Assembly (NCBI GenBank): GCA_002840275.1
Contig: PHAB01000011.1
Coordinates: 25,886 to 89,885, forward strand
Reading direction: 5' to 3'
Length of the DNA: 64,000 nt
Source of the DNA: Firmicutes bacterium HGW-Firmicutes-14
GTDB lineage: Bacteria > Bacillota > Thermincolia > Thermincolales > UBA2595
Numbering within the stretch: the stretch's first letter is position 1; every line of letters begins with the position of its first letter. Positions 2 through 59,565 of the stretch are shown here, in pieces. Below the pieces are notes generated by a model. The model was not told the DNA's origin. It saw only the letters and a list, made by a program, of their open reading frames with translations, and made no database searches. Made by a program: the position numbers and the translations under genes.

Positions 2-148
2 TATGAGGTCCGGGCAGCGGTATCTTTCTTCGGGGTAAAAAGCATGGATTTCCTGGTGGTTTCCGAACCCTTTGATTTCAATAAGACTAAAATTGAACTT
101 CCTAAGGGGCTTGTAGATAAGATGAACCAGGGGAGCGCTGCAAAGTAA
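2..148 (+). CDS. 3' end of an unidentified gene entering from outside the window
   Basis: Frame is open from the window edge (...VSFFGVKSMDFLVVSEPFDFNKTKIELPKGLVDKMNQGSAAK) to TAA 146-148. No family recognised. Confidence 0.3.
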   Translation, partial: YEVRAAVSFFGVKSMDFLVVSEPFDFNKTKIELPKGLVDKMNQGSAAK

Positions 149-153
149 AATGG

Positions 154-358
154 GCATATGTTCCGGTTTTAACCTTATACCATGGGAGGGGCAGATATGT
201 TCCTCCAGAACGAGTCTGATGTCCGTTTGTCCAACATAGCAGCTCTTAGCGCTTTAGCGCTTAGAGCTGTTATGTTGGGTAACAAACTGAATCGTAGCCG
301 TTCTGGAGGAATATATCTGCCCCTCTCTCGGTATTAAAGTTAAAACCGGAACATATGC
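154..358 (+). repeat. Hairpin-element family, copy 1 (inner unit 186-325 nested in a perfect 20-bp outer palindrome)
   Basis: 154-173 is the exact reverse complement of 339-358. The interior shares the core motifs GAACGAGTCTGATGTCCG (208-225) and GGGTAACAAACTGAATCGTAGCCGTTC (277-303) with copies at 46130, 52327 and 34959. Confidence 0.8.
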
Positions 359-367
359 ACCGTTTAC

Positions 368-709
368 TTATGTATTGTTCCCTTTGAAAGCGGCCATAGA
401 TGTGACCAGTGTTGAATTTGCTTTGGTAAAATATGTAATTCTAAGGATTTCGGCAATTGTATCATCAGATACACCCATGTGCCGCAGGACATTGGAAATT
501 GATTTGACCCCTTCATCGGCTCCTTCAGCTGCGTCTACAGCCAGGGAAATCATCAGTTTAGTCTTGATATCCAGTGTACTGTCCGAATAAACAAGTTCCT
601 GCAGTCCCTTCATCAGCTCAAAAAACTTCTCATCCCTGTCCTTGATAGCCGAGATAAATGGCAATAAATCCATGTTTGATACCCCTTTCGTCAAATTATT
701 TGTTGTCAT
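368..709 (-). CDS. Carboxymuconolactone decarboxylase / AhpD-like family protein
   Basis: 113-aa ORF with the typical CMD-family pattern (...DIKTKLMISLAVDAAEGADEGV...HMGVSDDTIAEIL). Confidence 0.65.
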   Translation of the reverse strand: MTTNNLTKGVSNMDLLPFISAIKDRDEKFFELMKGLQELVYSDSTLDIKTKLMISLAVDAAEGADEGVKSISNVLRHMGVSDDTIAEILRITYFTKANSTLVTSMAAFKGNNT

Positions 710-3576: not shown

Positions 3577-4636
3577 CAGAATTGAGGCGGTCAGGGCTGT
3601 TGTTAGGGAAAAGGGGCTTGACGGCCTGATAATTTCAAAGCAGGAAAACCGGCAGTACCTGAGTGGTTTTACCGGTACGGACGGGGTTCTGCTTATAACT
3701 GCAGCAGATAATCTGCTGATTACTGATTTCAGATATCTTGACCAGGCGGCTGAAGAAGCGCCGGAATTCAGGGTAATCAGGCCATTGAGTCTCGTTGAAG
3801 ATGCCCTGAGCGAGCAGGTCAAAGGACTCGGACTTAAAAGAATTGGGTTTGAAGATGAGAATATCGCCTTTAGTACTTATTATAAATATCAGGGAAAAAT
3901 GCCGGGGGTGGAACTGGTACCCCTGAGCCAGGCCGTTGAAAAGGTAAGATGGATAAAGGATGGCAGGGAACTGGATTACATAAGAAAGGCGGCTGCTATA
4001 ACTGACATTACCTTTGATCACCTGCTGGATTTTATACGCCCCGGGGTAGCCGAATCCGAGCTGGCCCTGGAAATTGAATATTTTATGAAGAGAAAAGGGG
4101 CGCAGAAATCTGCATTTGATATAATTGTGGCTTCAGGACCCAGGGCAGCCCTTCCTCATGGAACAGCTTCAGATAAAAAGCTGGAAATTGGAGAGTTTAT
4201 AGTCCTGGATTTTGGCGCTGTTGTGAACGGATACCACTCGGATATGACCAGGACCGTAGTTCTTGGTGACGCTGATAACCAGCAGCGGGAAATCTATGAC
4301 ATTGTTCTGAGGGCCCAGGAGAAGGCTGTCAATATGATAAAACCGGGAACAAAATGTTCCGGGATAGACCTGGCAGCCCGTGACCTGATAAGCCTGCACG
4401 GTTATGGGGCAAATTTCGGTCATAGTCTTGGTCATGCTGTTGGCCTTGAAATTCATGAAAAGCCCGGCTTTTCCCCTAAAGATGAAACACTTTTGGAACC
4501 GGGCATGGTTTTGACAGTGGAGCCCGGCATATATCTTAGCGGTTGGGGCGGGGTACGTATAGAAGACCTGATTGTTGTAACAGAAGACGGCTGTGAGGTA
4601 CTGTCAGGTTCTTCCAGGGCTTTAATCAGTTTATAA
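3569..4636 (+). CDS. pepP: Xaa-Pro aminopeptidase (M24B)
   Basis: 355 aa with creatinase N-domain plus M24 metal ligands ([18 protein letters not shown]...[14 protein letters not shown]...VEPGIY...RIED). Classic position upstream of efp. Confidence 0.9.
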
Positions 4637-5934: not shown

Positions 5935-7005
5935 ATGACTGCAGGCATTACCGACACGAAGCAGTGTAAGAAAAATGTTGATACGATGGTCTGCCTGATG
6001 TCCCGGGATATCCTCCCTGTCCTTCCCAACAGGATCAGGGAGATGGTCACAGAACTTCCGGGTGATATCCTTGACCAGGTCGAGGAAATCCGCCTGCGCC
6101 AGGGTAAACCCCTGCTAGTGGGTCTGAATGACCGGGATGTTATTGTTACTCCCCTGGGACAAATGACAACAGTGCCTGAATTTGGATATACAGTAACTGA
6201 TAAGGACCTTATGAGGGCGCTGCAGCTTATCAGCAGTTCCTCGGTATATGCCTTTGAGGAAGAAATCAGGAATGGATTTATTACTGTCAGGGGCGGGCAC
6301 AGGGTAGGGATATCGGGAAAAGTCATTGTGGACAAGGGCAGGGTCAGGACTTTTAAGTATATAACAGGATTGAATATCAGGGTTGCGCGGGAAATAACCG
6401 GTGTGGCCGACAGGGTTGTTTCTTATCTGTTAAACGCAGAAACCGGGGATGTATACCATACCCTAATAATTTCACCTCCACGGTGTGGAAAGACCACACT
6501 CCTCAGGGATATTATCAGGCAGCTAAGCTGCGGCATCCCGAAGCTCGGTTTCGGGGGCTGTACCGTGGGGGTTGTTGATGAAAGGTCTGAAATTGCCGGA
6601 TGCTACTATGGTGTACCCCAGAAAGATGTGGGAATCCGGACCGATGTGCTGGATGGCTGCCCCAAAGCGGAGGGAATGATGATGCTTATCCGTTCCATGG
6701 GACCCGCGTTAATAGCTGCTGATGAGATAGGCAAACCCGAGGATGCAACTGCCGTAGAAGAGGCCCTGAATGCGGGGATAAAGCTGCTTACCACCGCCCA
6801 TGGTAAAGACCGGGAAGAGATTGCCCAAAGGCCGGTTCTCAAATATATAATTGAACAGGGTATTTTCGAACGGCTGATAATCCTGGGAAGGTCCAGAGGG
6901 GTTGGGACAGTGGAAGACATAATTGACTGTAAAAACAGCGGGTCACTCATATATAACAACAGAACCGGGAGGGCAGTAACTGACAGGGAAAACATTAACG
7001 AATGA
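5935..7005 (+). CDS. spoIIIAA: Stage III sporulation protein AA (ATPase)
   Basis: Walker A (SPPRCGKTTLLRD) and Walker B (LIAADEIG). First gene of an eight-gene spoIIIA operon. ATG 5935 follows GGAAGGGGGG; the ORF track starts at 5908. Confidence 0.9.
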   Translation: MTAGITDTKQCKKNVDTMVCLMSRDILPVLPNRIREMVTELPGDILDQVEEIRLRQGKPLLVGLNDRDVIVTPLGQMTTVPEFGYTVTDKDLMRALQLISSSSVYAFEEEIRNGFITVRGGHRVGISGKVIVDKGRVRTFKYITGLNIRVAREITGVADRVVSYLLNAETGDVYHTLIISPPRCGKTTLLRDIIRQLSCGIPKLGFGGCTVGVVDERSEIAGCYYGVPQKDVGIRTDVLDGCPKAEGMMMLIRSMGPALIAADEIGKPEDATAVEEALNAGIKLLTTAHGKDREEIAQRPVLKYIIEQGIFERLIILGRSRGVGTVEDIIDCKNSGSLIYNNRTGRAVTDRENINE

Positions 7006-7006
7006 G

Positions 7007-7537
7007 GTGTGTACAGTGGTGTTGAAACTGATTGGGGCATGTATGACCCTGGGCGCCTGTGGGAGCATGGGCCTGGTCTGGGCGGGGGTACATGAAAAAC
7101 GGCCAAGACAGCTGACTGCCCTGGAAGGTGCGCTTCAACTGCTGGAAACCGAAATAACTTACGGCGCTACTCCTCTTCCGGAGGCAATGGAACAGGTGGC
7201 AGGACGTTGTGACCCGCAGGCGGCCGGATTGTTCATGATGACTGCCCGGGAATTTGCGAAAATGGGCGGGGTTACCGCTGCCGAGGCATGGGAAAGGGCG
7301 CTCGGACGGTTCTTTCCGGCTACTGCTCTGGATGAGACAGATTTGAATATTCTTATCAGGTTTGGGGCATCCCTCGGCATATCGGACAGACAGGATCAGG
7401 CGAAACACCTGAAGCTGGCCATGAACCAGCTCAAAGCCGCTGCAGGCAGGGCAGAAGCAGAGGCCAGGAAAAACTCGAACATTTTTAAATACCTGGGGTT
7501 TTTGGGTGGAATGCTCCTGGTTCTGATCCTTTACTGA
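7007..7537 (+). CDS. spoIIIAB: Stage III sporulation protein AB
   Basis: 176 aa, N-terminal TM segment, operon position 2. Confidence 0.85.
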   Translation: MCTVVLKLIGACMTLGACGSMGLVWAGVHEKRPRQLTALEGALQLLETEITYGATPLPEAMEQVAGRCDPQAAGLFMMTAREFAKMGGVTAAEAWERALGRFFPATALDETDLNILIRFGASLGISDRQDQAKHLKLAMNQLKAAAGRAEAEARKNSNIFKYLGFLGGMLLVLILY

Positions 7538-10124: not shown

Positions 10125-10847
10125 GTGCCGATATTGGTAAATTTTATTAAATCCATTAAGAAGTTGTTTGGCGCAGCGGATTCCGGCAGTGAGGAAGATA
10201 AAGGAGGACGGGCGGCCCGGCCCGTCTGGAAAAAGCTTAACAACCTGATAATTATTGCCGCTGCAGGTATCTTTCTGATTATCCTGGCTAATGTCTTTTC
10301 ATCAGATGGGAACCCGCCGGACGGACTCGGGGGAGGTGGTACTCCGGAAATCAAATCTCCCGGAATTGTCTCCCCCGGACCTGAGGGTTCCGGGTCAGGA
10401 GAAGATAAGGGGACCGGCGTTGCCTATACCCCCGGAATTACGGAACTGGAAAACCTGTTGGCAGAAAGGCTGGAAAAGGCGCTTGTCCAGATCAGCGGCG
10501 CCGGTAAACTGGAAGTAACCGTTAACCTTGCCTCAACCCTGGAGAAAGATTGTGCCGTCAATACTGTAACCAACAAAAAGACGACTGAGGAGCACGACCA
10601 GAAAGGGGGCAACCGGACAATTACAGAACTTAATGAAAACGGGCAGATGGTGCTGATCCGTGAAAGCCAGGGCAGTACGGAACAGCCGGTTGTTGTCAGG
10701 GAAGTAAAGCCTGAAGTAAAGGGTGTTATAGTGGTGGCAGAAGGAGCCCATGACCCTGCGGTTAAAGCAGATCTGATGAATGCTGTGCAGGTCTACCTTG
10801 ATGTCCCGCTTTATAAGGTTATAGTACTGCCGAGAGAAAGCAGGTGA
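10125..10847 (+). CDS. spoIIIAG: Stage III sporulation protein AG
   Basis: 240 aa. TM anchor, Gly/Pro linker, and C-terminal ring-forming domain ending ...VKGVIVVAEGA.DP.VK..L..AV...LDVP.YKV.V.P. Confidence 0.85.
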   Translation: MPILVNFIKSIKKLFGAADSGSEEDKGGRAARPVWKKLNNLIIIAAAGIFLIILANVFSSDGNPPDGLGGGGTPEIKSPGIVSPGPEGSGSGEDKGTGVAYTPGITELENLLAERLEKALVQISGAGKLEVTVNLASTLEKDCAVNTVTNKKTTEEHDQKGGNRTITELNENGQMVLIRESQGSTEQPVVVREVKPEVKGVIVVAEGAHDPAVKADLMNAVQVYLDVPLYKVIVLPRESR

Positions 10848-11482
10848 AAGGGATGAGGTCTTTGTTCATTAACAGAAGAAACCTGTGGGTCGCTATACTG
10901 TTCTTAGGTATCATTATGATGGGAGTGGGGGTATACCAATTGTCGGCGGAGATTGGGGAAGCCCCTGAAGGGACCGGAGGGGCCTTAGAAGGCACCGGAG
11001 CAGTTTCAGATGGCACCGGAGCAGTTTCAGATGGCACCGGAGCAGTCTCAGAAGGAACAGGGGGGAACCCCCTGATTACCGGTGGGGCTGTTGAGGTAAA
11101 GGATACGGGAAACAATCGGGCGAAGACTGAGAAGAGCGAGTTTTTCGTGGAATACAGACTGGAAAGAGACAGGACGCGGAGCCAGCAGATTGACCTGCTC
11201 AGGGAAATTGTCGATAACCAGCATTCACCGGAAGAAACCAGGAAGGAAGCCCAAAGGCGGATGTTGGCGATTTCACAAGCCATAGAAACAGAGATGAAAC
11301 TGGAGAACCTGATCAGGGCGGAAGATTTCAAAGATGCCGTGGTATTTATCCAGGAAAAATCAGTTACGATAATTGTCCAGACTCCGGCTTTGACCGCCCT
11401 GGATAAGAAAAGCCTGGCGGAAACTGCGGTCAGGGTGACCGGATTAAACGTGGAAAACATAATCATTATTCCAAAGATGTAG
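10844..11482 (+). CDS. spoIIIAH: Stage III sporulation protein AH
   Basis: 212 aa with TM anchor and C-terminal YscJ/FliF-like domain (FFVEYRLERDR.RS...). Last gene of the operon. Confidence 0.8.
   Translation: MKGMRSLFINRRNLWVAILFLGIIMMGVGVYQLSAEIGEAPEGTGGALEGTGAVSDGTGAVSDGTGAVSEGTGGNPLITGGAVEVKDTGNNRAKTEKSEFFVEYRLERDRTRSQQIDLLREIVDNQHSPEETRKEAQRRMLAISQAIETEMKLENLIRAEDFKDAVVFIQEKSVTIIVQTPALTALDKKSLAETAVRVTGLNVENIIIIPKM
10970..11053 (+). repeat. Four tandem 21-bp coding repeats inside spoIIIAH
   Basis: Units at 10970-10990, 10991-11011, 11012-11032 and 11033-11053 (GGCACCGGAGCAGTTTCAGAT and variants) encode GTGGALE/GTGAVSD/GTGAVSD/GTGAVSE. Confidence 0.85.
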
Positions 11483-11704: not shown

Positions 11705-13651
11705 ATGGTTAAGGCACACAAAGTCGAAATTACTGATACTACCCTGAGGGACGCCCATCAGAGCCTGTGGGCAACCCGTATGCGTACTGATGATATGCTC
11801 CCCATTGCAGAAAAACTTGACCAGGTGGGATATCATTCCCTGGAAGTATGGGGAGGCGCCACCTTTGATGTATGCCTCAGATACCTGAATGAAGACCCGT
11901 GGGAGAGGCTGCGGCAGTTAAAGAAACTGATAAAAAAGACTCCCCTGCAGATGCTTCTGCGGGGACAGTCCCTTGTCGGGTACCAGCATTACCCGGATGA
12001 TGTGGTGGAATCTTTTGTCCATAAGGCGGTTGAGAACGGAATAGATATCATCAGGATATTTGATGCCCTGAATGATATCAGGAACTTCGAAGTTCCGGTA
12101 AAGGTTGCCAAAAAGGCAGGGGCTCATGTCCAGGCAGCCGTGGTCTATACGGTAAGTCCCGTACATACGATGGAACATTACCTTGACACTGCACGCCAGC
12201 TGGCTGACATGGGGGCTGACTCCATATGCATCAAGGATATGGCCGGTCTCCTATCACCTTATATGGCCTATGACTTGGTTAAGCTGTTTAAAAAGAACCT
12301 GAAAATTCCCATTCAGCTGCACAGCCACTACATCGGTGGATTGGCACTGGGGGCTTACCTAAAGGCGGCCGATGCCGGGGTGGACGTAATTGATACAGCT
12401 TCGGTACCCCTTGCCTTCGGCGCTTCCCAACCGCCGGTGGAGACTGTGGTCAGGGCGCTTCAGGAATCCCCTCATGATACAAGGCTGGATATTCATACAC
12501 TGTTTGTTGTGTCAAAATACTTTGAAGAACTTAGGAAGAAACACGGTTTTGAACGGGGTGTGACAAGGATTACCGATATGAGGGTCTTTGAGCACCAGGT
12601 CCCCGGTGGAATGATCTCCAACCTGGTTTCCCAGCTGGAAGAACAGAAGGCCCTCCACCGCATCCATGAAGTCCTTGCAGAGATACCCCAGGTGAGAGAG
12701 GACCTGGGCTTTCCGCCCCTGGTCACACCGACCAGCCAGATTGTTGGCATCCAGGCCGTATTAAATGTCCTCACAGGGAAACGCTACAAGCTGGTCCCCG
12801 GAGAGGTGCGAGCATATATTCAGGGTCAGTATGGCAAACCGCCTGCCCCCATCAAGGAGGAGATTATCCAGCAGATTCTGGGGGACTGTGATGTTAATCT
12901 GATAAAATGCCGGCCAGCTGATTTGCTCGAACCGAAAATGGATACAATAAGGAGAGAAATCCAGGATTTGGCTGCTTCCGAGGAAGACATTTTATCTTAT
13001 GCCCTTTTCCCGTCAGTGGCCAGGAAGTTTTTTGAATGGCGGCTTAATAACGGTCTTGACACCGAAGATGCAAATACTATTCCTGATGTAATAGTGAAGC
13101 AGGAAGAAGTGGCGCTCCCGGAAAACGGTGTAAACCAGGATAAACCGAATGTCAAAGACCTGAAAAAAGACATCCTTAAGGGAGGAAAGAGCATGAATCT
13201 AACAGAGATAAAAGAACTTATCAAGATGCTGGACGAAACAGATATCTGCGAACTTCATCTGGAAAGCGCCGGTGTAAAGGTGTCTATCAAAAAGGCAGGA
13301 GCAGGTCCGTCAGCCGGGTTCCCGCCGGCAGGTTCCCCATCAGCCGGTGAAGAGGTTTCCGTGCCTGTTGAAGAAAGCAGGGAGAAACCAACCAGGGATA
13401 TTGATGAAAACCTTATTCAGATAGTTGCCCCCATGGTAGGGACATTTTACCGTGCCCCATCCCCGGAAGCCGCACCCTTTGTGGAAGTGGGGCAGATGGT
13501 TACTGAAGGGCAGACCCTCTGTATCATTGAGGCTATGAAGCTGATGAACGAAATCGAGGCTGAGATTTCCGGACGTATAGTGGATATCCTCGCAGAGAAC
13601 GGCCAGCCGGTTGAATACGGCCAGACGCTTTTCCTCCTCGAAAAAGCATGA
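11705..13651 (+). CDS. 5S-type carboxyltransferase (pyruvate carboxylase subunit B / oxaloacetate decarboxylase alpha-like) fused in frame to a complete biotin carboxyl carrier protein
   Basis: The N-terminus [22 protein letters not shown]... is the HMGL-like 5S carboxyltransferase domain. From ATG 13193 (preceded by AAGGGAGGA) the sequence is a full AccB ([15 protein letters not shown]...[15 protein letters not shown]). No stop codon lies between the two parts. The ORF-track start at 11510 adds an implausible AT-rich leader. Confidence 0.85.
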
Positions 13652-17890: not shown

Positions 17891-20233
17891 TTGGATAATG
17901 AAAAATTGCTGTCAGAATATGTGGATTATTGGAATTATAGTTATCCTATAGCTAAAAGGAAAGAAATTTTAACTGGTTTTAAGGATAAGGCTAGGTTGGA
18001 AGGAAGGAAGTTATACGAAAAAATTTTTGAAGGATTGTTGTTACTGGAAAAGGGTGAATATGAAGATGCTGCAAAAGAGTTCAACTCTATCATTGAAGAA
18101 GATGACACATGTTTTTTGGCTTGGCGGGGGTTAGCCAAGGCTAATTATTTGCTTAAAGATTGCAACCAAGCGGTAGCTCCCCTTAAAAAAGCACTAGAGA
18201 TTCAACCTGACTTTTTTCCAACACTGTGTCTAAGTGCCTGTCTCAAGGTTGAAATGGAAGACATCAGCGGAGCTTATAACGAAGCAAAAAAGGCATTAGA
18301 ATTGGATATAGAAAAAAAATCTGTTCCTTGTCGGATAATCTTAGGACGTATACTAAGTATTCAAGGTAAATATAACAAGGCAGAACATTATTATAAAGAA
18401 GCTCTTTTAATTAACAGTCAAAGCGCGCAAGCGTTCAATGCACTGGGAAATCTATATTTACACTTAAAAAAGTATAATCAAGCAAAGGATAATTATTTTA
18501 AGGCAATAAATTGCGACAAAGACTTTGCGAATCCTTGGAACGGGCTGGGCTCTTTATATTGTCAGTTGCGTAATTACGAGAAAGCGGAGGATTTTTATAT
18601 TAAGGCATCGAACTTAGACCCTAACTATATTACTCCATGGCTCAATTTAGCTGAAATGTACACTGATTTAAACAGGATAGAGGATGCAATCTATTGCTTT
18701 CAAAAACTTAATTCTATTAAATTCAATCCAGATTATTTAACAAAGATTGGTTCCAGTTATCTGGGTCTTAGGCGATATAAAGAAGCTAAAGACTATCTTT
18801 TTAAAGCTTTAGAGAGTTTTCAAGAAACAGATAATTTCCGTGCATCTATCGCTGAATCAATAATTAAAGAAGCAGAATTTCTAGAGCTTATGGAGAAGGA
18901 AGAAAATCGCGATGAGGATGACAAACTAAGAAAAATTTTAATTGAAACAAGAGAAATAGAAGAAAAGTCTGAAAAGAATAAGGAGTCTTTTTTAAAGTTT
19001 ATTGGTCCTCAAGACATTAAAGATTTTTATCGTGAAAAGCCAGAAGAAAAAAATGCGGAAGCATATTTAGAGGTTTTAAGAAAATGGAACTCTTATACAC
19101 CTATCATTGCAGATGATTATCAAGTGAGTAAAGGCGGAGGATACTTCCTAAAAATTAATAACAGGGGAATCGTTATAGATCCAGGTTTTAATTATATCCA
19201 CAACTTTAAAGCTGCCGGATATAAGTTCTACGAAATAGATGACGTATTTATTTCTCATGCGCATAATGACCATACTGCGGACTTAGAATCAATTTTAACC
19301 TTGGTGTATAAATATAATGAAGAACTCAAGGGAATGGAAAATTATTCTAATTTTAATACAATTCGCGCAGAGTTGGCAAGAAAACATAACAAAAAGATTC
19401 ATTCTATTACAAGGCAGGAAATAGAACAAGAGTTTAAGATATCCCCAAGGCAAAAGAAAATAAACCTCTATATGACATCCAGCGTATTTAAAAAGTATGC
19501 AGGTCTTTTTGATCTCTGCTCTCATGCATATTACAATGTATATTTTTTAGAAAGAGACTCAGTTATTCCAATAGGGACTAAAAGCAGGGTAAAGGTTCTT
19601 AGGGCTAAACATTTTGACACTATTTCAGATGTAAAATCATGTGGATTTTTAATTGAATATTATGATAAAGCCATTATATACACAGGTGATACCGGTTGGG
19701 ATAGTGATGCTATAATTCAACAGTACAATAATATCAAAAATTATAAGTATAAGTTACTTATCGCTCACATAGGTGGATTTAAAGAATACGAGTGGAATTA
19801 CATCAGACGGCAAGGGGATAAAACATACTATACCAATCATCTTGGCAGACTGGGATTAGTTGAACTAAACCAGGCACTCCAACCCAATGTTTGTTTGATT
19901 TCGGAATTTGGAGAAGAATTTAAAGATTTTAGGAGGAAAATAGCTGGAGCTTTTAGTGAAGTATTTAAGAATGACAAAATCACGTATATACCGGCAGATA
20001 TTGGATTAAAATTCGATTTACGATTTGAGAAGATTAAAGCGATAACAGATATAGACCCTGATAAATACGCTTTTTCCGAAGACTATATTGAACCATCTGA
20101 AGTTAAAGTCGGTGAACTAAGAAAGTTTTTCTCTTTGTTTTACTTCTGTAAGAATGATAAGTTTTCTGAAAGCGATTTAGTTCAAGTATTATTAGACAGG
20201 GCCTCGGGTCAGAGATTTATAAAACAACCGTAG
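17891..20233 (+). CDS. TPR-repeat protein with C-terminal metallo-beta-lactamase-fold hydrolase domain
   Basis: 780 aa. There are multiple TPR-like units up to about residue 330, then a Glu/Lys-rich linker, then MBL motifs VIDPG, HAHNDH (19256-19273), KHFD, YTGDTG and AHIGG/TNHLG. The gene is AT-rich with A/T-ending codons, unlike its neighbours. Confidence 0.8.
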   Translation: MDNEKLLSEYVDYWNYSYPIAKRKEILTGFKDKARLEGRKLYEKIFEGLLLLEKGEYEDAAKEFNSIIEEDDTCFLAWRGLAKANYLLKDCNQAVAPLKKALEIQPDFFPTLCLSACLKVEMEDISGAYNEAKKALELDIEKKSVPCRIILGRILSIQGKYNKAEHYYKEALLINSQSAQAFNALGNLYLHLKKYNQAKDNYFKAINCDKDFANPWNGLGSLYCQLRNYEKAEDFYIKASNLDPNYITPWLNLAEMYTDLNRIEDAIYCFQKLNSIKFNPDYLTKIGSSYLGLRRYKEAKDYLFKALESFQETDNFRASIAESIIKEAEFLELMEKEENRDEDDKLRKILIETREIEEKSEKNKESFLKFIGPQDIKDFYREKPEEKNAEAYLEVLRKWNSYTPIIADDYQVSKGGGYFLKINNRGIVIDPGFNYIHNFKAAGYKFYEIDDVFISHAHNDHTADLESILTLVYKYNEELKGMENYSNFNTIRAELARKHNKKIHSITRQEIEQEFKISPRQKKINLYMTSSVFKKYAGLFDLCSHAYYNVYFLERDSVIPIGTKSRVKVLRAKHFDTISDVKSCGFLIEYYDKAIIYTGDTGWDSDAIIQQYNNIKNYKYKLLIAHIGGFKEYEWNYIRRQGDKTYYTNHLGRLGLVELNQALQPNVCLISEFGEEFKDFRRKIAGAFSEVFKNDKITYIPADIGLKFDLRFEKIKAITDIDPDKYAFSEDYIEPSEVKVGELRKFFSLFYFCKNDKFSESDLVQVLLDRASGQRFIKQP

Positions 20234-30083: not shown

Positions 30084-30779
30084 ATGAAGTATACTGTAAT
30101 GTCAGGAGATTCCATGTACAGTATTGCCAGGAGGTTAGGTGTTCCTTTTGCCGAACTGGTCAAAGCCAATCCCCAGATAGCTGACCCCGATGTAATATAT
30201 CCCGGGCAGTATCTTGAGATTCCGGTTGAGAAAACCGCAGACTTTGATGACCAGCAGATTAAATCTCCATGCTGTCAGGATGTGCCCTCCGGCTTTGTTC
30301 CCGGATACTTACCGACAGGTACCCCGGCACCGGAAACAACCGGTGAATGGTCCGGGATGCCGGGAATGCAAGGGATGCCGGGAATGCAAGGGATGCCGGG
30401 AATGCCGGGAGTGCCGGAAATGCAAGGAATTCCAGGAATGCCAGGAATGCCAGGAATGCAAGGGTTGCCGTGGACACCCGGGATGCTGGGAATACAGGGG
30501 ATGCCCGGCCCGGGAACGGGTCAGCTTCCGTTTCAGGGATATGTTCCTCCGATGCCGCCCGGGTGGAATGCGGCCGGGGCACAGGAAAGGTTTAGTCCCG
30601 CAAATGGTCCATCCTGGGTCAATGTCTTACAGTCGGCAAAACCCGGAGAAGAAGGCCGGCATATTGAATACCTGCAGAAAACCTTAAAAGGGCTTGGATA
30701 TTACGATGGGAAGGTTACCGGCAGGTATGGCAGGAAGACCCTGAAAGCGGTGAAAAGGTTTCAGAAAGCATGCAAGTAA
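30084..30779 (+). CDS. LysM domain / Gly-Met-Pro repeat / peptidoglycan-binding (PG_binding_1) protein
   Basis: N-terminal LysM (YTVMSGDSMYSIARRLGV...YPGQYLEIP), central GMPGMQ repeats, and C-terminal ...LQKTLKGLGYYDGKVTGRYGRKTLKAVKRFQ. Confidence 0.8.
   Translation: MKYTVMSGDSMYSIARRLGVPFAELVKANPQIADPDVIYPGQYLEIPVEKTADFDDQQIKSPCCQDVPSGFVPGYLPTGTPAPETTGEWSGMPGMQGMPGMQGMPGMPGVPEMQGIPGMPGMPGMQGLPWTPGMLGIQGMPGPGTGQLPFQGYVPPMPPGWNAAGAQERFSPANGPSWVNVLQSAKPGEEGRHIEYLQKTLKGLGYYDGKVTGRYGRKTLKAVKRFQKACK
30354..30510 (+). repeat. Tandem 9-bp-periodic coding repeat (GGAATGCCN / GGGATGCAA)
   Basis: Encodes GMPGMQGMPGMQGMPGMPGVPEMQGIPGMPGMPGMQG... Confidence 0.85.
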
Positions 30780-34922: not shown

Positions 34923-34958
34923 AGAGGCTGATTGTCAAAAATCAGTTTCCTATAAATA

Positions 34959-35072
34959 ACATGAAGGGTGTATTCCTTTGAGCGGCAACAACTCAGCCGG
35001 TTAACCACTTCCGCTTCGCGGGTCGTGGACCGGCGGATGTCAGACGTGCTCTGAGGAATACACCCTTCATGT
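34959..35072 (-). repeat. Hairpin-element family, copy 4 (divergent, reverse orientation)
   Basis: A 19-bp perfect closing stem, ACATGAAGGGTGTATTCCT (34959-34977) with AGGAATACACCCTTCATGT (35054-35072). The minus strand reads GAGCACGTCTGACATCCGCCG ... GGTTAACCGGCTGAGTTGTTGCCGCTC, matching the family core. Confidence 0.7.
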
Positions 35073-35153
35073 CTTATTTTACGTAACATTTTTTGTCAAC
35101 AAGCCCCATTACGGGACGAACCACAGCTTACTATGGTGTTTTGTTGTAATCCT

Positions 35154-39095: not shown

Positions 39096-39147
39096 TACTT
39101 TCACAATTTGATAAAGTAATTTTAATCAAATGTGTATCAGTATCCTG

Positions 39148-39758
39148 GTAGGTGGCGCAGTATCCTAGTCAGGACCGGCACTTTGAGGGCGGGCCTAAAA
39201 ATCCGTCAAAGGGCATATCGATGAAGTTCCTGGTTCCGGCTGCTGACGCCCAGTTGGGGGTCGGTTCTGGGAGTAAGGGGGAAGGGCGATCTACAATGGC
39301 ATGTAGGCGTGGACCCAGCCCCCGTGGAGGCCCGGAAGCTGTAGTACAAGATAGTGGGAATTACCTTATACTACGATTCGGGATAAACCTGCCTAAGATG
39401 TTTTATTTTATATAATTCGTCAGAAGCAGTGTAGCCTGCCTTGAGTGGTGCTGGTGGATTATGGGTTACCGGGGTACCGGATGCGGGCCCGCGTCCGGCA
39501 ACTCCGCTATTTGAAACCACCACTGCAAAAGAGGCTAGAAGTATCCCGGTACTGTTGAGGAAAACTCCTAGGCTGTTTAGGTTAAACCTAAGACATGATG
39601 GGGATTAAAGTGTGGACTAAGTGGTAATCCAGCCCCGTATTCGGTGACGGTACGGATTCATCATAAAGGGAAACCGCCGGCACGGTAACGTGGCGGTGAT
39701 GATTGGGAAAACCAGCTGGACCTAAGCTACAACATTTACTCATCATGTTGCCACCTAC
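39148..39758 (+). ncRNA. ole: OLE (ornate, large, extremophilic) RNA
   Basis: A tract of about 611 nt with no credible ORF lies exactly at the ispA-side / oapA / dxs position typical of OLE. It is closed by a long-range helix, GTAGGTGGC (39148-39156) with GCCACCTAC (39750-39758). There are many internal GC-rich helices (e.g. CCGGATGCGGGCCCGCGTCCGG, CCGCCGGCACGGTAACGTGGCGG). Confidence 0.8.
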
Positions 39759-39785
39759 TGTTACATTTACATGAGGTGAAACTAT

Positions 39786-40379
39786 TTGGGAAACAATAAG
39801 CCTGGCTCTCTTAAATTTGCAGTTTTTACAGGAGCCGGCGCGTTTTTAGTGGCTGTTTTTTTTAGTATATTTTCTGAAATATTGTTGCCAAAACTGCAAA
39901 TACTTATACTATCTTTTTTTGTTTTACTCCTGGTTATTTTTATTGGGATAATATTTGACATGATTGGGGTTGCCGCAGCTGTTGCAGATGAACGGGCGTT
40001 TCATGCAAAAGCCTCTAAGAAGCTTAAGGGAGCAAGTCACTCCCTGTTTCTGATAAAACATGCTGACAAGGTGGCAACTTTTTGTAATGATGTGGTGGGG
40101 GATATATGTGGAACTGTCAGCGGCGCCTTTGGAGTGGCCATAGGTCTCCAGGTGGTTACCGGTAAGCCTGACTGGAATGAAAGTATCCTTACCATGATAA
40201 TGACCGGACTCGTTGCTTCATTGACCGTGGGCGGGAAAGCTGCGGGGAAGAAGACCGCTATGGATGATTCTGAACAAATTATTTATGCCGTTGGCAGAAT
40301 AATCGCCTGGTTTGAATCAGTGACAGGGATACGGATTATTGGCGGCGGCCAGCGTAAGGGCAAGGATAGAAGAAGGTGA
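39786..40379 (+). CDS. oapA: OLE-associated membrane protein OapA
   Basis: 197-aa protein with four hydrophobic segments immediately downstream of the OLE-like RNA and upstream of dxs. TTG start. Confidence 0.75.
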
Positions 40380-42322
40380 ACAAAACAGTGGATACTCCAC
40401 TATTGGACAAGGTAAACGGCCCTTCAGACCTGAGGGGTTTTTCTATAAGCCACCTGCACAGACTGGCGGAAGAAATCAGGGCGTTTCTGATAGAATCGGT
40501 TTCCGGGACAGGAGGACATCTTGCCCCCAATTTGGGGGTTGTAGAACTGACTATTGCCCTGCACAGCGTTTTTAGCTGTCCCCATGACAAACTAATATGG
40601 GATGTGGGTCACCAGTCATATGTGCATAAGATCCTGACAGGAAGAAAGGAAGAGTTTTCAACCCTCAGACAATATGCCGGGTTGAGCGGTTTTCCCAAAA
40701 GGGCGGAGAGTAAATGTGACCCTTTTGATACAGGACACAGCAGTACATCCATATCAGCTGCCCTCGGAATGGCGCTGGCCCGGGACCTAAACGGAGAGGA
40801 TTATAATATAATCGCAGTAATAGGCGATGGGGCAATGACAGGCGGAATGGCTTTTGAAGCCCTCAACCACGCAGGTCATATGGGCAAAAACATGATTGTG
40901 GTGCTGAATGATAATGAGATGTCAATCTCTGAAAACGTAGGGGCCCTTGCCGGCTATTTAAGCCGGATGAGGACTGACCCGAAGTATTATAAACACAAGG
41001 AAGAAATGGAACTGATGTTAAAGAAGATTCCTTCCATCGGTCCGACGGTCGTCAAGGCTATTGAAAGGATAAAGGACAGTTTTAAGTACCTGGTGGTACC
41101 GGGAATGATTTTTGAGGAACTGGGGTTTACCTATCTGGGACCTATCAACGGGCATGACATAGCCCTTATGAAGACTGTTCTGGAGCGGGCAAAGAAGAGC
41201 CATGGCCCTATTATTGTGCACGTGGTTACACGGAAAGGCAAGGGTTATAAACCGGCTGAGGATAACCCCGACAAATTCCATGGTATCGGACCTTTCGACA
41301 TAGATTCCGGAAATGGGAAGGGAACTAAAAAAGCATCTTATACAGATGTTTTCGGCAGTACCCTCTGTGAAATAGCTGAACAAAATGAAAAGGTTGTTGC
41401 TATTTCAGCTGCCATGCCATCAGGGACGGGACTCACCAAGTTCCAGGACCGGTTTCCAAAAAGGTTTTTTGACGTGGGAATAGCCGAGCAGCATGCAGTA
41501 ACAATGGCTGCCGGGTTATCTGTAAATGGATATATTCCTGTTGTGGCTATTTATTCCACTTTTCTGCAGAGGGCTTATGACCAGATTCTTCATGATGTCT
41601 CCTTACAGGGCCTGCACGTCATTTTTGCCATTGACCGGGCCGGGTTGGTTGGTGAAGACGGGGAAACACACCAGGGAGTGTTTGATGTTTCTTATTTGAG
41701 GCATATTCCCGGCATGACGGTGATGGCCCCAAAGGATGAAAACGAATTGCGCCTGATGCTTAAGGCGGCAGTTGAAGCGAAAGGCCCCGTGGCTGTCAGA
41801 TATCCCCGGGGAGCCGGTATGGGAGTACCCTTAACAGATATTGATTGTCCTGATAACAAATTACCGAGGGGTGCAGATCTGTTGAGGGAGGGTTCCGATA
41901 TTACCATAGCTGCCATAGGGCCTCTTGTTTATACAGCTCTTGAGGCCGCAGAATCACTTCACGAAGAGGGGATTTGTGCTGCTGTAATAAACGCCAGGTA
42001 TATTAAACCACTTGATGAAGAATGTCTTATAGAAAACATTTTGAAGACCGGAAGCCTGCTGACCGTTGAAGAGAATGTCCTGCAAGGTGGGTTTGGAAGC
42101 GCGGTTCTTGAGATGCTGAACCGAAAAGGAATAAATATACAGGTGAAATGTATGGGAATTGCCGATGAGTTTGTCAGTCACGGCACCCCTGACATTTTAA
42201 GGCAGAAATACGGTTTGACAAGTCAGGGTATAATTTCACATGTAAGGGAAATGTTATCAGGGGAGGACGAGCCGAAAAAGCTCAGAAAAACTGCGCGGAT
42301 TAAGGTTTTGACTAAGCCTTAG
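40376..42322 (+). CDS. dxs: 1-deoxy-D-xylulose-5-phosphate synthase
   Basis: ...[18 protein letters not shown]....[18 protein letters not shown]... and [15 protein letters not shown]. Confidence 0.97.
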
Positions 42323-45164: not shown

Positions 45165-46103
45165 ATGATGCTGACAAAAAAATGGATTACAGCCGTACTG
45201 TTAGGCTTGATGGTGACAGTGCTGTTTACCGGTTGCCGGGACTCCGCTCCGGAAATGGGGGAACGAAAGAAGGTAACTGAAGCACAGGTTAAGGCTTTTC
45301 AGGCTCAAAAGGAGCAAAAAATGGTTGATATATATGTGCCTATTAAGGAACAGTATGAGACCAGCGGGCACTCTGAATCCCTTAAAACTCTGAGGGAATA
45401 CCAGGGTACTATAGAGCCAAGATGTTATTCTTGTATGTCAGCGGAATATTTTCTCGCCCCCCCGGAACAGAAACCTGAACCTGCAGCAATTAGCCATTCC
45501 ATAACATGTGCAGTATGCCATGAAATGACACTGTCTGAATTTAAACTCAGACTGGAACCACTGGAAACCTGTACTACCTGCCATAACAACGGGGGTGACA
45601 TTGTCGCCGGACAACAGGTCCATCACCCGCAGAAAGAGATGTTTCTGGGATATGGCGCTATCGGGGTCCCCAACACACCTGATACAAAGTACAGTTCCGG
45701 ACTGACCTGTATTGAATGTCACATGCCTAATGAAGCCCACACCTTTAAGGGCAAGACTCCTGCCGATGCTCTTAAGGAGCATACGGAAAGCATTTGTGTC
45801 ATGTGCCATGCGGACAGATCTGAAGAACAGTTTGCCAAGGAAGTTGCCAAAATGCAGTCACAAATTGAAAAAAGCTGTGATTCAATCGAGAAAAGCCTAA
45901 AGCTGTCAGAGCAAAAGATGAGGACTTTTGGACAACAGGGAAGAGATGTTACGAAAGCCTGGGAAGTTTACAATGTTGTTTATACCAATCTGTCTTTTGT
46001 GGTTTCTGACGGGAGCAAGGGCATACATAATTTTGGGTATGCCACCAAGATTACCGAGTATACGGAAAAACGGAACCGCGAGCTCGAGGAACTGCTCAAA
46101 TAA
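45165..46103 (+). CDS. Multihaem c-type cytochrome lipoprotein (4 CxxCH plus an NrfA-like CxxCM)
   Basis: Lipobox LFTGC. Haem motifs CAVCH, CTTCH, CIECH, CVMCH. CYSCMSAEY (C87-M91) resembles the NrfA CWSCKSPD active-site motif. Confidence 0.8.
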   Translation: MMLTKKWITAVLLGLMVTVLFTGCRDSAPEMGERKKVTEAQVKAFQAQKEQKMVDIYVPIKEQYETSGHSESLKTLREYQGTIEPRCYSCMSAEYFLAPPEQKPEPAAISHSITCAVCHEMTLSEFKLRLEPLETCTTCHNNGGDIVAGQQVHHPQKEMFLGYGAIGVPNTPDTKYSSGLTCIECHMPNEAHTFKGKTPADALKEHTESICVMCHADRSEEQFAKEVAKMQSQIEKSCDSIEKSLKLSEQKMRTFGQQGRDVTKAWEVYNVVYTNLSFVVSDGSKGIHNFGYATKITEYTEKRNRELEELLK

Positions 46104-46129
46104 AACATAATTTTTGCACCTAAATATAA

Positions 46130-46300
46130 GGAGTGGCAGATATGTTCCGGAAGAACGAGTCTGACATCCGCTTGTCCAACATGGCAGCTCTTGGCGCTTT
46201 AGCGCCTAGAGCTGGCGGTACCCTTGGGGTAGAGCGCGCAAGCGCGATTGGGTAACAAGCTGAGTTGTAGCCGTTCTGGAGGAACGTATCTGCCACTCCC
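46130..46300 (+). repeat. Hairpin-element family, copy 2 (most complete reference copy)
   Basis: The closing stem is GGAGTGGCAGATA with TATCTGCCACTCC. The core motifs are at 46153-46170 and 46250-46276. An apical hairpin with a GCGC-TTTA-GCGC tip is present, plus an extra GC-rich branch at 46215-46249. Confidence 0.8.
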
Positions 46301-46331
46301 TTGTATTTATGACAAAAATTATGGAATGTCT

Positions 46332-46844
46332 TTAGATGCTTATTTTCATTTCAGTTGGAAACTTGACCGGAATCTCGTGACTTTTGTTATCTGCATAGAT
46401 CAGGCTATCGGGGATTGTGCCTTTTTTAAGTTCAAATATCAGCAGTCCGCCTCCCCGGTAATCGGGAGGAAGGGTGACTTCTTTAAAGGCAGCCTTACTG
46501 GTTATGGTTTGTGTCAATTCAGGGGAATACTTATATTCAGTTCCGTCTGTCATTTTTAATGTGACAAATTCAGGGGAAATTGGCACATTATCTTTCGTAT
46601 TGTTGTCGACTGCTACCTGAATGCTCACAACTTCGTAACCGTCTTTACCACTGATGTTCATTCCTGATAAAGAACGGATCTCCCGGCTTATTGACAGCGC
46701 CAGTCCATTATCTTCTGCCGTAAGGTGGGCGGTGTCAGGTTGTTCAGGCGGTGGCTCAGGGGCCGAACCCTGCTGTTTTGTTTTTGAACAGCCAATAAAT
46801 GCAGTCAATGAAATGATTATGACCAATATCAAAAATTTTTTCAT
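46332..46844 (-). CDS. Lipoprotein, DUF4352-like
   Basis: Signal peptide and lipobox MKKFLILVIIISLTAFIGC, followed by a beta-rich domain of about 130 aa. Confidence 0.7.
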   Translation of the reverse strand: MKKFLILVIIISLTAFIGCSKTKQQGSAPEPPPEQPDTAHLTAEDNGLALSISREIRSLSGMNISGKDGYEVVSIQVAVDNNTKDNVPISPEFVTLKMTDGTEYKYSPELTQTITSKAAFKEVTLPPDYRGGGLLIFELKKGTIPDSLIYADNKSHEIPVKFPTEMKISI

Positions 46845-52277: not shown

Positions 52278-52326
52278 ACACAGGGAGACAAAAGTTCGAT
52301 TAATTAAGTGAAAAAACTATAATAAA

Positions 52327-52399
52327 ACAGGGAGAGGAAGATATTTATGCGCGATTGGGTAACAACTGAGTTGCTGCCGTCGTTTATCTGCCTCTCCCT
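52327..52399 (+). repeat. Hairpin-element family, copy 3 (73-nt mini version retaining only the 3' core)
   Basis: CAGGGAGAGG (52327-52336) pairs with CCTCTCCCTG (52390-52399). The interior ...GCGCGATTGGGTAACAACTGAGTTGCTGCCGTCG matches copy 2 at 46243-46275. Confidence 0.6.
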
Positions 52400-52426
52400 G
52401 TTTTCATATTATAGGGAAGCTCTTTG

Positions 52427-58696: not shown

Positions 58697-59458
58697 TTGG
58701 GTTACCAGATTAAGACAGAGGTTTTTGAGGGACCTTTTGACCTTCTGTTTCACCTCATAGAGAAGAATGAAGTTGACATCTATGATATACCGATAGCCGA
58801 AATAACCCAACAATACCTGGAGTACATTACAGCGATGCAGATGCTTGACCTCGAGGTAACAAGTGAATTCCTTGTCATGGCTGCCAGCCTTTTGGCCATA
58901 AAAGCAAGGATGCTGCTGCCCAAACCCCCGCCGGCCGGGGATGAGGAAACTGAAGAGGAAGTTGACCCCAGGGATGAGCTGGTGGAAAAACTGCTGGAAT
59001 ATAAGAAATTTAAAGCTATGGCAGAATACCTGCAGGAAAAAGAAACTTTCATGAACAAGGTCTATACCAGGCCCAATGAAGAGGAAATGTTTTTCCACCT
59101 GTTCAGTGAGGAAAACCCCCTGGAAGGAATCAGCCTGCCAACCTTGCTGAATGCCCTCCAGGAAGTTCTTGACCGGGCGGCAGAGCGGGAAATTACGGGG
59201 GAAATACCTAGAGATGAAGTTACCATCAGGGATAAGATGAAGGAAATAATGCGCAGGCTGTTTTTCCACAGCCGGGGAATAGCTTTTAAGGATTTGTTCA
59301 CACCCAAGGTGACAAGGGTAGAGGTTATTGTCACATTTCTTGCCCTCCTGGAACTTATCCGGATCGGCAGGATAAATGCATACCAGTCAAAGGCTTTTGG
59401 AGAGATAATGATTTATAGCAGTGAGAAAGAAATTGCCGAAGCATCAACAGAGTTCTAA
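58697..59458 (+). CDS. scpA: Segregation and condensation protein A
   Basis: ...FEGPFDLLFHLIEKNEVDIYDIPIAEIT.QYLEY... Confidence 0.93.
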   Translation: MGYQIKTEVFEGPFDLLFHLIEKNEVDIYDIPIAEITQQYLEYITAMQMLDLEVTSEFLVMAASLLAIKARMLLPKPPPAGDEETEEEVDPRDELVEKLLEYKKFKAMAEYLQEKETFMNKVYTRPNEEEMFFHLFSEENPLEGISLPTLLNALQEVLDRAAEREITGEIPRDEVTIRDKMKEIMRRLFFHSRGIAFKDLFTPKVTRVEVIVTFLALLELIRIGRINAYQSKAFGEIMIYSSEKEIAEASTEF

Positions 59459-59565
59459 TCGTCAGGTGGAGTTTGGACTCCAACTGACGATTAGAAATCG
59501 TTATCCAGGAGCTTAGCGCCGCTTACCTCCCGCCTGAAGAGGCGGGAGTGTTAGCGGCGGTTAGC
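59457..59565 (+). other. Two adjacent long hairpins in the scpA-scpB spacer
   Basis: Hairpin A is AATCGTCAGGTGGAGT-TTGG-ACTCCAACTGACGATT (59457-59492). Hairpin B is GCTTAGCGCCGCTTACCTCCCGCC-TGAAGA-GGCGGGAGTGTTAGCGGCGGTTAGC (59511-59565). Confidence 0.6.

Follow-up and report, generated by a model that had tools for sequence, protein, structure and literature searches.

The stretch of DNA analysed here (the window) comprises 64,000 nucleotides of Firmicutes bacterium HGW-Firmicutes-14 (assembly GCA_002840275.1, contig PHAB01000011.1, positions 25,886 to 89,885 of the forward strand) and carries, next to gene 3′ ends, a family of long imperfect hairpins whose stem is kept paired by compensatory changes. 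Nearly all genes of the window lie on the plus strand, and its minus-strand genes end at positions 368, 24605, 35154, 46332 and 52427. As an earlier interpretation made from the letters alone (the sequence-only reading) had stated, and as the gene coordinates confirm, four of the five convergent junctions in the window hold a copy of the hairpin and the fifth has a gap of 8 nt. The window copies are the following.

143–369, plus strand: c1, a composite 227-nt hairpin with an inner unit (181–334) and an outer module (143–180 / 335–369)
34950–35080, sense on the minus strand: c3, of a short subtype whose apex is one hairpin, flanked by folD (stop 34922) and spo0M (stop 35154)
46106–46324, plus strand: c2, the reference copy, with a core hairpin (46130–46301) extended by the outer stem CATAATTTTTG/CAAAAATTATG and filling the interval from the stop at 46103 to that at 46332
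52313–52416, plus strand: c4, a decayed copy in which the 3′ arm and the closing stem AAAACAGGGAGAGG/CCTCTCCCTGTTTT survive and the 5′ arm is deleted along with most of the apical domain

A fifth copy in the same genome, c5, lies about 1 kb past the window end (locus L040, about 11975–12235) at a co-directional junction.

All four window copies were found where the sequence-only reading had placed them. A degenerate 23/24-nt pattern for the core of the 3′ arm (CGGCWRCRAYTCAGN{2,3}GTTAMCC) matches the window at c1–c4 and nowhere else, each time on the expected strand, against 0.00 matches expected from dinucleotide shuffles; the 5′-arm motif GTCTGAYRTCCG is present exactly in all three full copies; and repeat detection recovered c1 and c2 as direct repeats of 87–88% identity, together with the inverted arms of every window copy. 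All four fold much better than shuffled sequences (z −6.8 to −21.7). The copies are hairpins as proposed, but their real spans are longer, so that they almost fill the interval from stop codon to stop codon, and the closing stems of two copies had been swapped: GAAGGGTG/CACCCTTC belongs to 34959–35072 and GAGAGG/CCTCTC to 52327–52399.

The copies differ in completeness. c1 folds with a minimum free energy (MFE) of −151.3 kcal/mol (z −21.7) and scores 79.3 bits with a covariance model on its sense strand against 39.2 bits antisense; its ends, AAGTAAA.../...TTTACTT, hold the stop codons of both convergent genes (146–148 and 368–370). The reference copy c2 (DNA fold −67.6 kcal/mol, z −11.2) is 88% identical to a copy at 3611–3777 of locus L004 in a metagenome-assembled genome (MAG), and c3, with 77.9 bits on the minus strand versus 43.2 on the plus strand, has short-type relatives at MAG loci L004 and L005. 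c4 scores just 17.2 bits, and BLAST finds 94.6% identity over 37 nt between it and MAG copies. The 73-nt form at 52327–52399 had been read as a mini version of the element; next to the MAG copy at L015 it proves to be a deletion derivative from which the whole 5′ arm is gone, its junction running from ATATTT directly into ATGCGCG, and what remains looks like a bidirectional intrinsic terminator. The covariance model recognised c5 although this copy was not in its training set (68 bits sense versus 31 antisense). The outer module of c5 is homologous to that of c1, and the TAA of this module doubles as the stop of the pseudouridine-synthase gene upstream. The outer arm common to c1 and c5, AAGTAAA(A)TGGG(G)CA...TTTTAACCTT, provides the upstream gene's stop in both, and the flanks of c5 prolong the inverted repeat (TAAATGGGGCAG/CTGCCCCATTTA).

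Beyond the window genome, a scan of 185,579 species genomes with the core pattern yielded multiple real copies in one genome, the MAG DAHVYW01 ('Bacillota bacterium clean791'), which holds at least five or six. The same scan gave eight single matches, about the chance number, and a metagenome scan gave 8 more; the covariance model rejects all of them. BLAST with all copies added short-type MAG copies at L004 4128–4248, L004 7594–7709 and L005 6949–7072. The core pattern had no match in a viral scan, nothing similar to the element was found in 72,556 plasmids and 50,697 phages, and blastn against 5,426 complete E. coli genomes returned no match. The window host has an OLE RNA, many sporulation genes and a FolD 83–86% identical to Sporomusa FolD, on which basis we read it as an uncultured, Sporomusaceae-like member of the Negativicutes that is represented in metagenome assemblies (ERZ27239243, JGI 3300029821). 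Across these searches the family appears to be restricted to this lineage.

Conservation of the hairpin was assessed on an alignment of the stem parts of the 8 full copies, with the variable apex replaced by a tetraloop, using RNAalifold and a covariation test on the 8 sequences. RNAalifold returns a single long helix of 38 pairs, 19 of which carry compensated double changes, a number reached by none of 500 shuffles. Paired cells amount to 93.1%, compared with 83.6 ± 1.1% in column shuffles (0/500 reach the observed value), and in a control in which the partner column was slid by 1–3 positions, 41–50% of cells were paired and 2–5 pairs had double changes. c5 adds an independent compensation at the base of the apical domain, where CCAA/UUGG becomes CGGC/GCCG. 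The proposal that differences between copies are compensated on the opposite arm is thereby upheld. Core identity among copies is 58–90%, and there has therefore been no recent burst of identical miniature inverted-repeat transposable elements (MITEs); the simple recent MITE that the sequence-only reading had allowed for, with near-identical copies and no covariation, does not describe copies that are this diverged and that covary. The family is dispersed, multi-copy, non-coding and mosaic, contains decayed and near-identical copies, and has a stem kept paired by compensation.

Within the stem, two short motifs stand out.

46159–46165, plus strand: conserved 5′ core motif GTCTGAC, also at 214–220 (GTCTGAT) and at 35045–35039 on the minus strand
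46264–46272, plus strand: conserved 3′ core motif GTTGTAGCC, also at 291–299 (ATCGTAGCC) and at 34992–34984 on the minus strand (GTTGTTGCC)

Together they form a non-Watson–Crick core, 5′-GUCUGAC opposite 5′-GUUGUWGCC, that is conserved in sequence in all subfamilies. In the core alignment the C-T-G-A of the 5′ motif is invariant (8/8), two MAG copies have G for its first T, and c1 has T for its last C. The 3′ motif pairs with it through tandem U.G/G.U wobbles and a small asymmetric loop, so that the core, when drawn, runs G–C, U.G, a 1×2 asymmetric loop, tandem U.G/G.U, A–U and C–G. Pair 37–71 is U.G in 8/8 copies, pair 38–70 is G.U in 7/8 and pair 35–74 is U.G in 6/8. A second recurrent feature is a 3×3 purine loop (GGA/GGA or GGA/GCA) beside a GUUCC/GGAAU stem, which is fully paired in c1. 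This picture departs from the sequence-only reading, in which the conserved arm segments, both containing CUGA, were not complementary and would form an asymmetric internal loop, possibly of sheared G-A, k-turn or loop-E type. The segments form mostly helix (GAY/RUY, UC/GA and GYNKG/CMNRC), interrupted by one bulged purine and one C.U mismatch. The GAY/RUY pairing itself covaries (GAU/AUC versus GAC/GUU), and in place of the 3′ CUGA, MAG copies have AUGGAG (L004b) or ACGGCG (L004c), which turns the C.U mismatch into a pair. A kink-turn, which requires conserved tandem sheared G.A pairs after a 3-nt bulge, or a loop-E module was rejected on this ground, the conserved feature being the tandem U.G/G.U.

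The fold is constrained in one single strand, as RNA or as single-stranded DNA (ssDNA). The alignment of 8 copies contains 42 G.U cells versus 8 A.C cells, across the MFE folds of nine copies G.U pairs number 39 in the sense orientation versus 12 in antisense, and the sense fold is 4–17 kcal/mol more stable than the antisense fold in 8/9 copies. With the covariance model, the 8 full copies score 67–83 bits sense versus 19–45 antisense; the model gives no full sense-strand match for c2, probably through the penalty on its 79-nt apical insertion or a hit-length limit, and we treated this as technical. MAG copies that lie in opposite orientations on one contig display the same asymmetry, which therefore belongs to the element itself rather than to the replication strand. 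In the window, GC skew on the plus strand is +0.10 to +0.16 in each 8-kb bin (+0.13 throughout); from this uniformity and the gene strand, the window lies on one replichore, with the plus strand as the leading-strand sequence (lagging-strand template). The plus strand carries the sense strand of four of the five copies c1–c5, a bias that does not discriminate between explanations, since this is also the coding strand of most genes.

Over about 74 kb of the window genome, a copy is present in 4/7 convergent, 1 of about 60 co-directional and 0 divergent junctions (Fisher p = 2e-4). The proposed association with convergent junctions is thus strong but not exclusive: c5 lies at a co-directional junction, and two further convergent junctions past the window end are empty. 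Distances from element to stop codon range from 0 to about 80 nt, and in c1 and c5 the end of the element contains the TAA of the gene upstream.

These positions bear on the possibility that the element is a functional cis-acting RNA, such as a bidirectional terminator, an insulator of convergent transcripts or a stability element of the 3′ untranslated region (UTR) that binds RNase III or another protein. We consider this possible, if on balance unlikely. c1, c2 and c5 begin at or within a few nucleotides of the upstream stop and must therefore be transcribed, and c5 is co-oriented with its upstream gene; a strand-specific fold preserved by compensated changes among copies of such divergence would also be expected of a functional RNA. 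c2 is the sole hairpin between its two convergent genes, and c4 and c5 have G+C-rich outer stems that run into U-rich stretches on both sides. Repetitive extragenic palindromes (REPs) are proposed to serve in E. coli as dual regulators within 3′ UTRs (bioRxiv 10.64898/2026.03.23.713779; PMC3733652). Against such a role, the apical domain is exchanged, lost or triplicated freely, the whole 5′ arm is absent from one copy and the 5′ third from another, and the genes flanking the MAG copies and c3 have small terminator-like hairpins of their own between stop and element. MAG convergent junctions hold two copies tail to tail, each antisense to its nearest gene; three of the seven convergent junctions in the window genome have no element; and relatives have unrelated repeats at the same sites.

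Searches for known signals speak to the same question. Promoter and terminator scans gave no signal at c2, and terminator-like sites in 50–64 kb were not enriched over shuffles; the scanner permits loops of at most 8 nt, and no copy was therefore called as a terminator. By eye, the closing stems of c4 and c5 fit an intrinsic terminator, and the tails of c2 and c3 are moderately U-rich only. A gathering-threshold Rfam scan of the whole window found only the OLE RNA at 39136–39770, and E-value scans of c1, c2 and c3 gave chance miRNA-like hairpin hits of at most 25 bits, far below threshold. The earlier statement that the element matches no known Rfam family stands, and this too counts against a functional RNA.

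The apex of the hairpin varies by whole modules.

46179–46249, plus strand: variable apical domain of c2, with three small hairpins at 46183–46216, 46219–46231 and 46234–46246

All three occur in long copies; c1 keeps the first of these hairpins alone, the L015 copy keeps the third alone, and the short type has a different, unrelated single hairpin. This mixing of apical modules between copies, seen in both alignment and folds, counts against a functional RNA and for a repeat family. The copies also differ widely in age and integrity: the long copy at L005 is 98% identical to L004a, and other pairs are 58–90% identical. This L005 copy (7143–7290 / L008 1–114), compared with L004 3604–3777, lacks the 5′ third, and the long hairpin therefore cannot form. 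In four independent assemblies (L003, L005/L008, L037 and L038), a contig breaks off within a copy. Further small modules accompany the MAG copies. The long copies have in common CCTGGCCTTCATGGACAAA and a small terminator-like hairpin, found at L004 3552–3580, L008 135–165 and L015 1225–1255; its loop, CATAAGTAACTAG, closes every reading frame with a stop at two of these loci, and L015 has CATAAGTAACAGG, with stops in two frames. The short copies have another small hairpin module in common, on the other side. Targeting of terminator hairpins already in place, suggested in the sequence-only reading, is not supported: the copies have homologous closing stems and outer modules (c1 with c5, c4 with L015), which are therefore part of the element, not host terminators.

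A classical MITE, that is, a deletion derivative of an insertion sequence (IS) moved as double-stranded DNA by a DDE transposase acting at its terminal inverted repeats, with hairpin potential as a by-product, would also account for small elements with no open reading frame (ORF) and several subfamilies with nested or composite copies, and a terminal inverted-repeat consensus can be written (GGGGCAGRYRTGTTCC...GGAATAYRYCTGCCCC). This reading seems to us rather improbable. Pairing is kept along the whole length, and the termini, despite their common consensus, vary and covary between copies rather than being conserved. A double-stranded substrate leaves the G.U excess on one strand unexplained, no target-site duplication is visible, and the plasmids and phages searched, which are IS-rich collections, hold nothing similar.

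Public gene calls place a 37-aa ORF with a plausible Shine–Dalgarno sequence in c2 (window 46142–46255), and c1 has a 46-codon ORF in the same frame. A free-standing gene for a small RNA or a small protein (for example, a type I toxin), repeated in the genome, could be imagined on this basis, and we regard it as very improbable. The long and short types differ by a frame shift, c5 and L015 have no ATG, and the ORF is gone in c4; in 5.8 billion proteins the 37-aa sequence matches itself alone, and there is no promoter-like site around c2. Since neither reading frame nor start codon is conserved from copy to copy, a protein-coding reading was ruled out, and the 37-aa ORF is probably a spurious annotation.

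Comparison with known repeats places the element in familiar company. REPs of Proteobacteria, and the REPINs (hairpin-forming REP doublets) and bacterial interspersed mosaic elements (BIMEs) built from them, are moved by RAYT Y1 transposases and are extragenic multi-copy hairpins that reach about 100 nt or more, as here. Compensatory changes are common across both sides of the REPIN hairpin, which is thought to fold in ssDNA or mRNA (PMC3116915), and the element resembles REPINs in this respect. REPs lie mostly between convergent and co-directional ORFs, at convergent junctions mostly less than 20 bp from both ORF 3′ ends, and their termini sometimes provide the stop codon (PMC3733652); the preference for such junctions, the closeness to ORF 3′ ends and the stop-donating termini all recur in the present family, as does the mosaic association of BIMEs with other small hairpin modules. 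The high novelty that the sequence-only reading implied is not borne out, because distribution, stop overlap, compensation and size variants are known for REPs and REPINs (PMC3733652, PMC3116915). Differences are nevertheless clear. A REP unit is a G+C-rich palindrome of 20–40 bp that carries on one side an unpaired tag, GTAG or CGTC (PMC3733652), whereas the arms of our element are not such palindromes, contain no autonomous REP-like palindrome and have no conserved unpaired tag (GTAG occurs in c1, c2 and c5 only, and c3 and the MAG copies have GTTG). Assignment as a REP or REPIN unit was rejected for these reasons. The elements are also 2–5 times longer than REPINs, reside in a Negativicute rather than a proteobacterium and have no RAYT gene among the loci read.

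ERIC sequences (also called IRU) are 127-bp imperfect palindromes of enterobacteria that have apical indel variants, occupy transcribed intergenic sites and are moved by an unknown mobiliser. They have reportedly been described by Hulton 1991, Wilson & Sharp 2006 and De Gregorio 2005. In size, whole-length imperfect palindromy, apical indel variants, transcribed intergenic sites and pairing maintained between diverged copies, they are said to resemble the present family, and the features that remove its apparent novelty reportedly hold for them too. The family differs from ERIC in showing no sequence similarity (the blastn comparison with E. coli genomes), in belonging to a different phylum, in its conserved tandem-G.U core and in its stop-carrying outer modules.

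Other comparisons are looser. MITE-like families such as Correia/NEMIS, RUP, BOX and bcr1 are likewise small, non-coding, intergenic, bounded by inverted repeats and able, when transcribed, to serve as terminators or mRNA-processing sites (PMC3184786, PMC2229807), but they have recognisable target-site duplications and often a cognate IS, neither of which was found here, and their termini are fixed, whereas the termini here covary. Intrinsic terminators have in common with the family a G+C-rich stem flanked by A-rich/T-rich runs (c4, c5) and a position directly after stops, and compensatory evolution of terminator stems is known (PMC5381666); they differ in that their stems are usually 5–15 bp, against element stems of 40–100 bp with a structured apex, and in that here the same family stands at many unrelated genes in two or three genomes. 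Two further candidates were discarded. PATEs of the IS200/IS605 type have distinct subterminal hairpins at their left and right ends, with tnpA or tnpB elsewhere, whereas here the whole element is one hairpin, and there is no tnpA or tnpB in neighbouring genes. Integron attC sites are excluded by the absence of R″/L″–L′/R′ boxes (RYYYAAC...GTTRRRY, which GGGTAAC and GTTGTWG do not fit), by the occurrence of single copies between housekeeping genes instead of cassette arrays and by the lack of an integrase nearby.

We consider it reasonably probable that the element is a lineage-restricted, non-autonomous family of imperfect-palindrome repeats of about 115–230 nt, kin to REPIN/BIME, ERIC and hairpin MITEs. 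Of the three roles put forward in the sequence-only reading, a non-autonomous mobile hairpin fits best, and a passive 3′-UTR or terminator hairpin is plausible. Copies would spread in a copy-and-paste manner through a single-stranded, folded intermediate, and a trans-acting enzyme would recognise the imperfect core 5′-GUCUGAC/5′-GUUGUWGCC with its tandem G.T(U) pairs, the only sequence-conserved part, much as Y1 enzymes of IS200/IS605 type or RAYTs read imperfect hairpins. Insertions may persist downstream of genes, above all between convergent genes, because only there would a strong hairpin of 40–100 bp be harmless. Once inserted, the hairpin would become part of the 3′ UTR, supplying the TAA in two cases (c1 and c5), and would probably act as a terminator or 3′-end-protecting stem in both directions; its long stem is very likely a substrate of RNase III.

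Several observations weigh against the mobile-repeat interpretation. No transposase, reverse transcriptase or integrase adjoins any copy according to the tables of neighbouring genes, as had been noted before, and the gene tables for about 150 kb of the relevant genomes contain no mobilising gene (transposase, RAYT or integrase); Y1_Tnp (PF01797) is likewise absent from the gene tables and Pfam scans of the loci read. c1–c5 have no target-site duplication or direct repeat, their flanks belonging to the inverted repeat. No empty site was found among FolD relatives, none of which is closer than 90% FolD identity and which carry other repeats at the site. Mobility is inferred and transposition was not observed. 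Strand-specific G.U pairs cannot tell RNA from ssDNA, the orientation of MAG copies relative to the nearest gene is not uniform, and most copies are old (58–90% identical) yet still paired, which selection on a host-beneficial RNA would explain equally. The MAG loci show no synteny with the window, so filled and empty sites cannot be compared between them, and the nadE genes compared between the two genomes are paralogues (25% identity), so that genome divergence is not calibrated.

Relatives of the window genome carry other palindromes at the same junctions. In GCA_002840165.1 and its relatives (FolD 89% identity), a palindrome of about 350 nt follows folD directly; its termini GGGGAAGGGGCGGGTGTGTT... 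and core CTGACGTCGTTGGC are as in short-type copies, with a CTGACGTCGTYGGC core, and it is therefore a diverged member of the superfamily. Two of the three assemblies break inside it.

L024 10918–11272: palindrome of about 350 nt
L037 10915 to contig end: the same palindrome, broken by the assembly
L038 2480 to contig end: the same palindrome, broken by the assembly

Locus L027 (a relative with 89% FolD identity) has a different 130-nt two-hairpin repeat, AAAGTGAAACTTACTTCAGGTGGAG...GGCTAACCGCCACTTATCTCCCG..., at 10867–10990 and 18522–18650, that is, after folD and at the FtsJ/DUF4352 junction, the two junctions occupied in the window by c3 and c2. At L039 (about 5975–6185; a relative with 90% FolD identity), another palindrome of about 230 nt follows folD, with the ends GGTCATGGCATGAAA.../...TTTCATGCCATGACC. 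In sister genomes, these junctions are filled by no fewer than four families of hairpin repeats that are unrelated or very diverged. A bolder and, in our estimate, doubtful extension is that the element represents an undescribed Negativicute replicator, in which one-strand hairpins with a conserved tandem-G.U/asymmetric-loop core would be read by an ssDNA recombinase or an RNA-binding or processing protein, and hairpin families would compete for a 'terminator niche', replacing one another between sister species.

The remainder of the window offers some unrelated features. The OLE RNA is full-length (39136–39770, plus strand, 502 bits) and is followed by an oapA-like gene (39786–40379) and dxs (40376–42322), the usual ispA–OLE–oapA–dxs order, here in a Sporomusaceae-like Negativicute genome. 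In-frame tandem repeats occur at 30318–30515 (9-nt period, Gly-Met-Pro/Gln type, in the ORF 30084–30779) and at 10967–11071 (21-nt period, in the ORF 10844–11482). Between scpA and scpB, at 59450–59499, there is a 23-bp hairpin with 91% complementarity and a loop of 4 nt that is unrelated to the element.

The family itself is new and lineage-specific, but the class of palindromic intergenic repeats to which it belongs is well known, and it is no new kind of RNA; concepts would change only if a new mobilising enzyme or RNA activity were found. A literature search found no report of such repeats in Sporomusaceae-like Negativicutes, and the family extends long-lived, structure-constrained hairpin repeats of the REPIN/ERIC type to these uncultured bacteria. 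In practical terms, the repeats break metagenome assemblies of the lineage and cause spurious small ORF calls, including a 37-aa 'protein' in public collections, and MAG annotation would gain from a covariance model of the family. With the same junctions filled by unrelated repeats in sister genomes, the lineage offers a natural system for the turnover of hairpin repeats and their recruitment as terminators.

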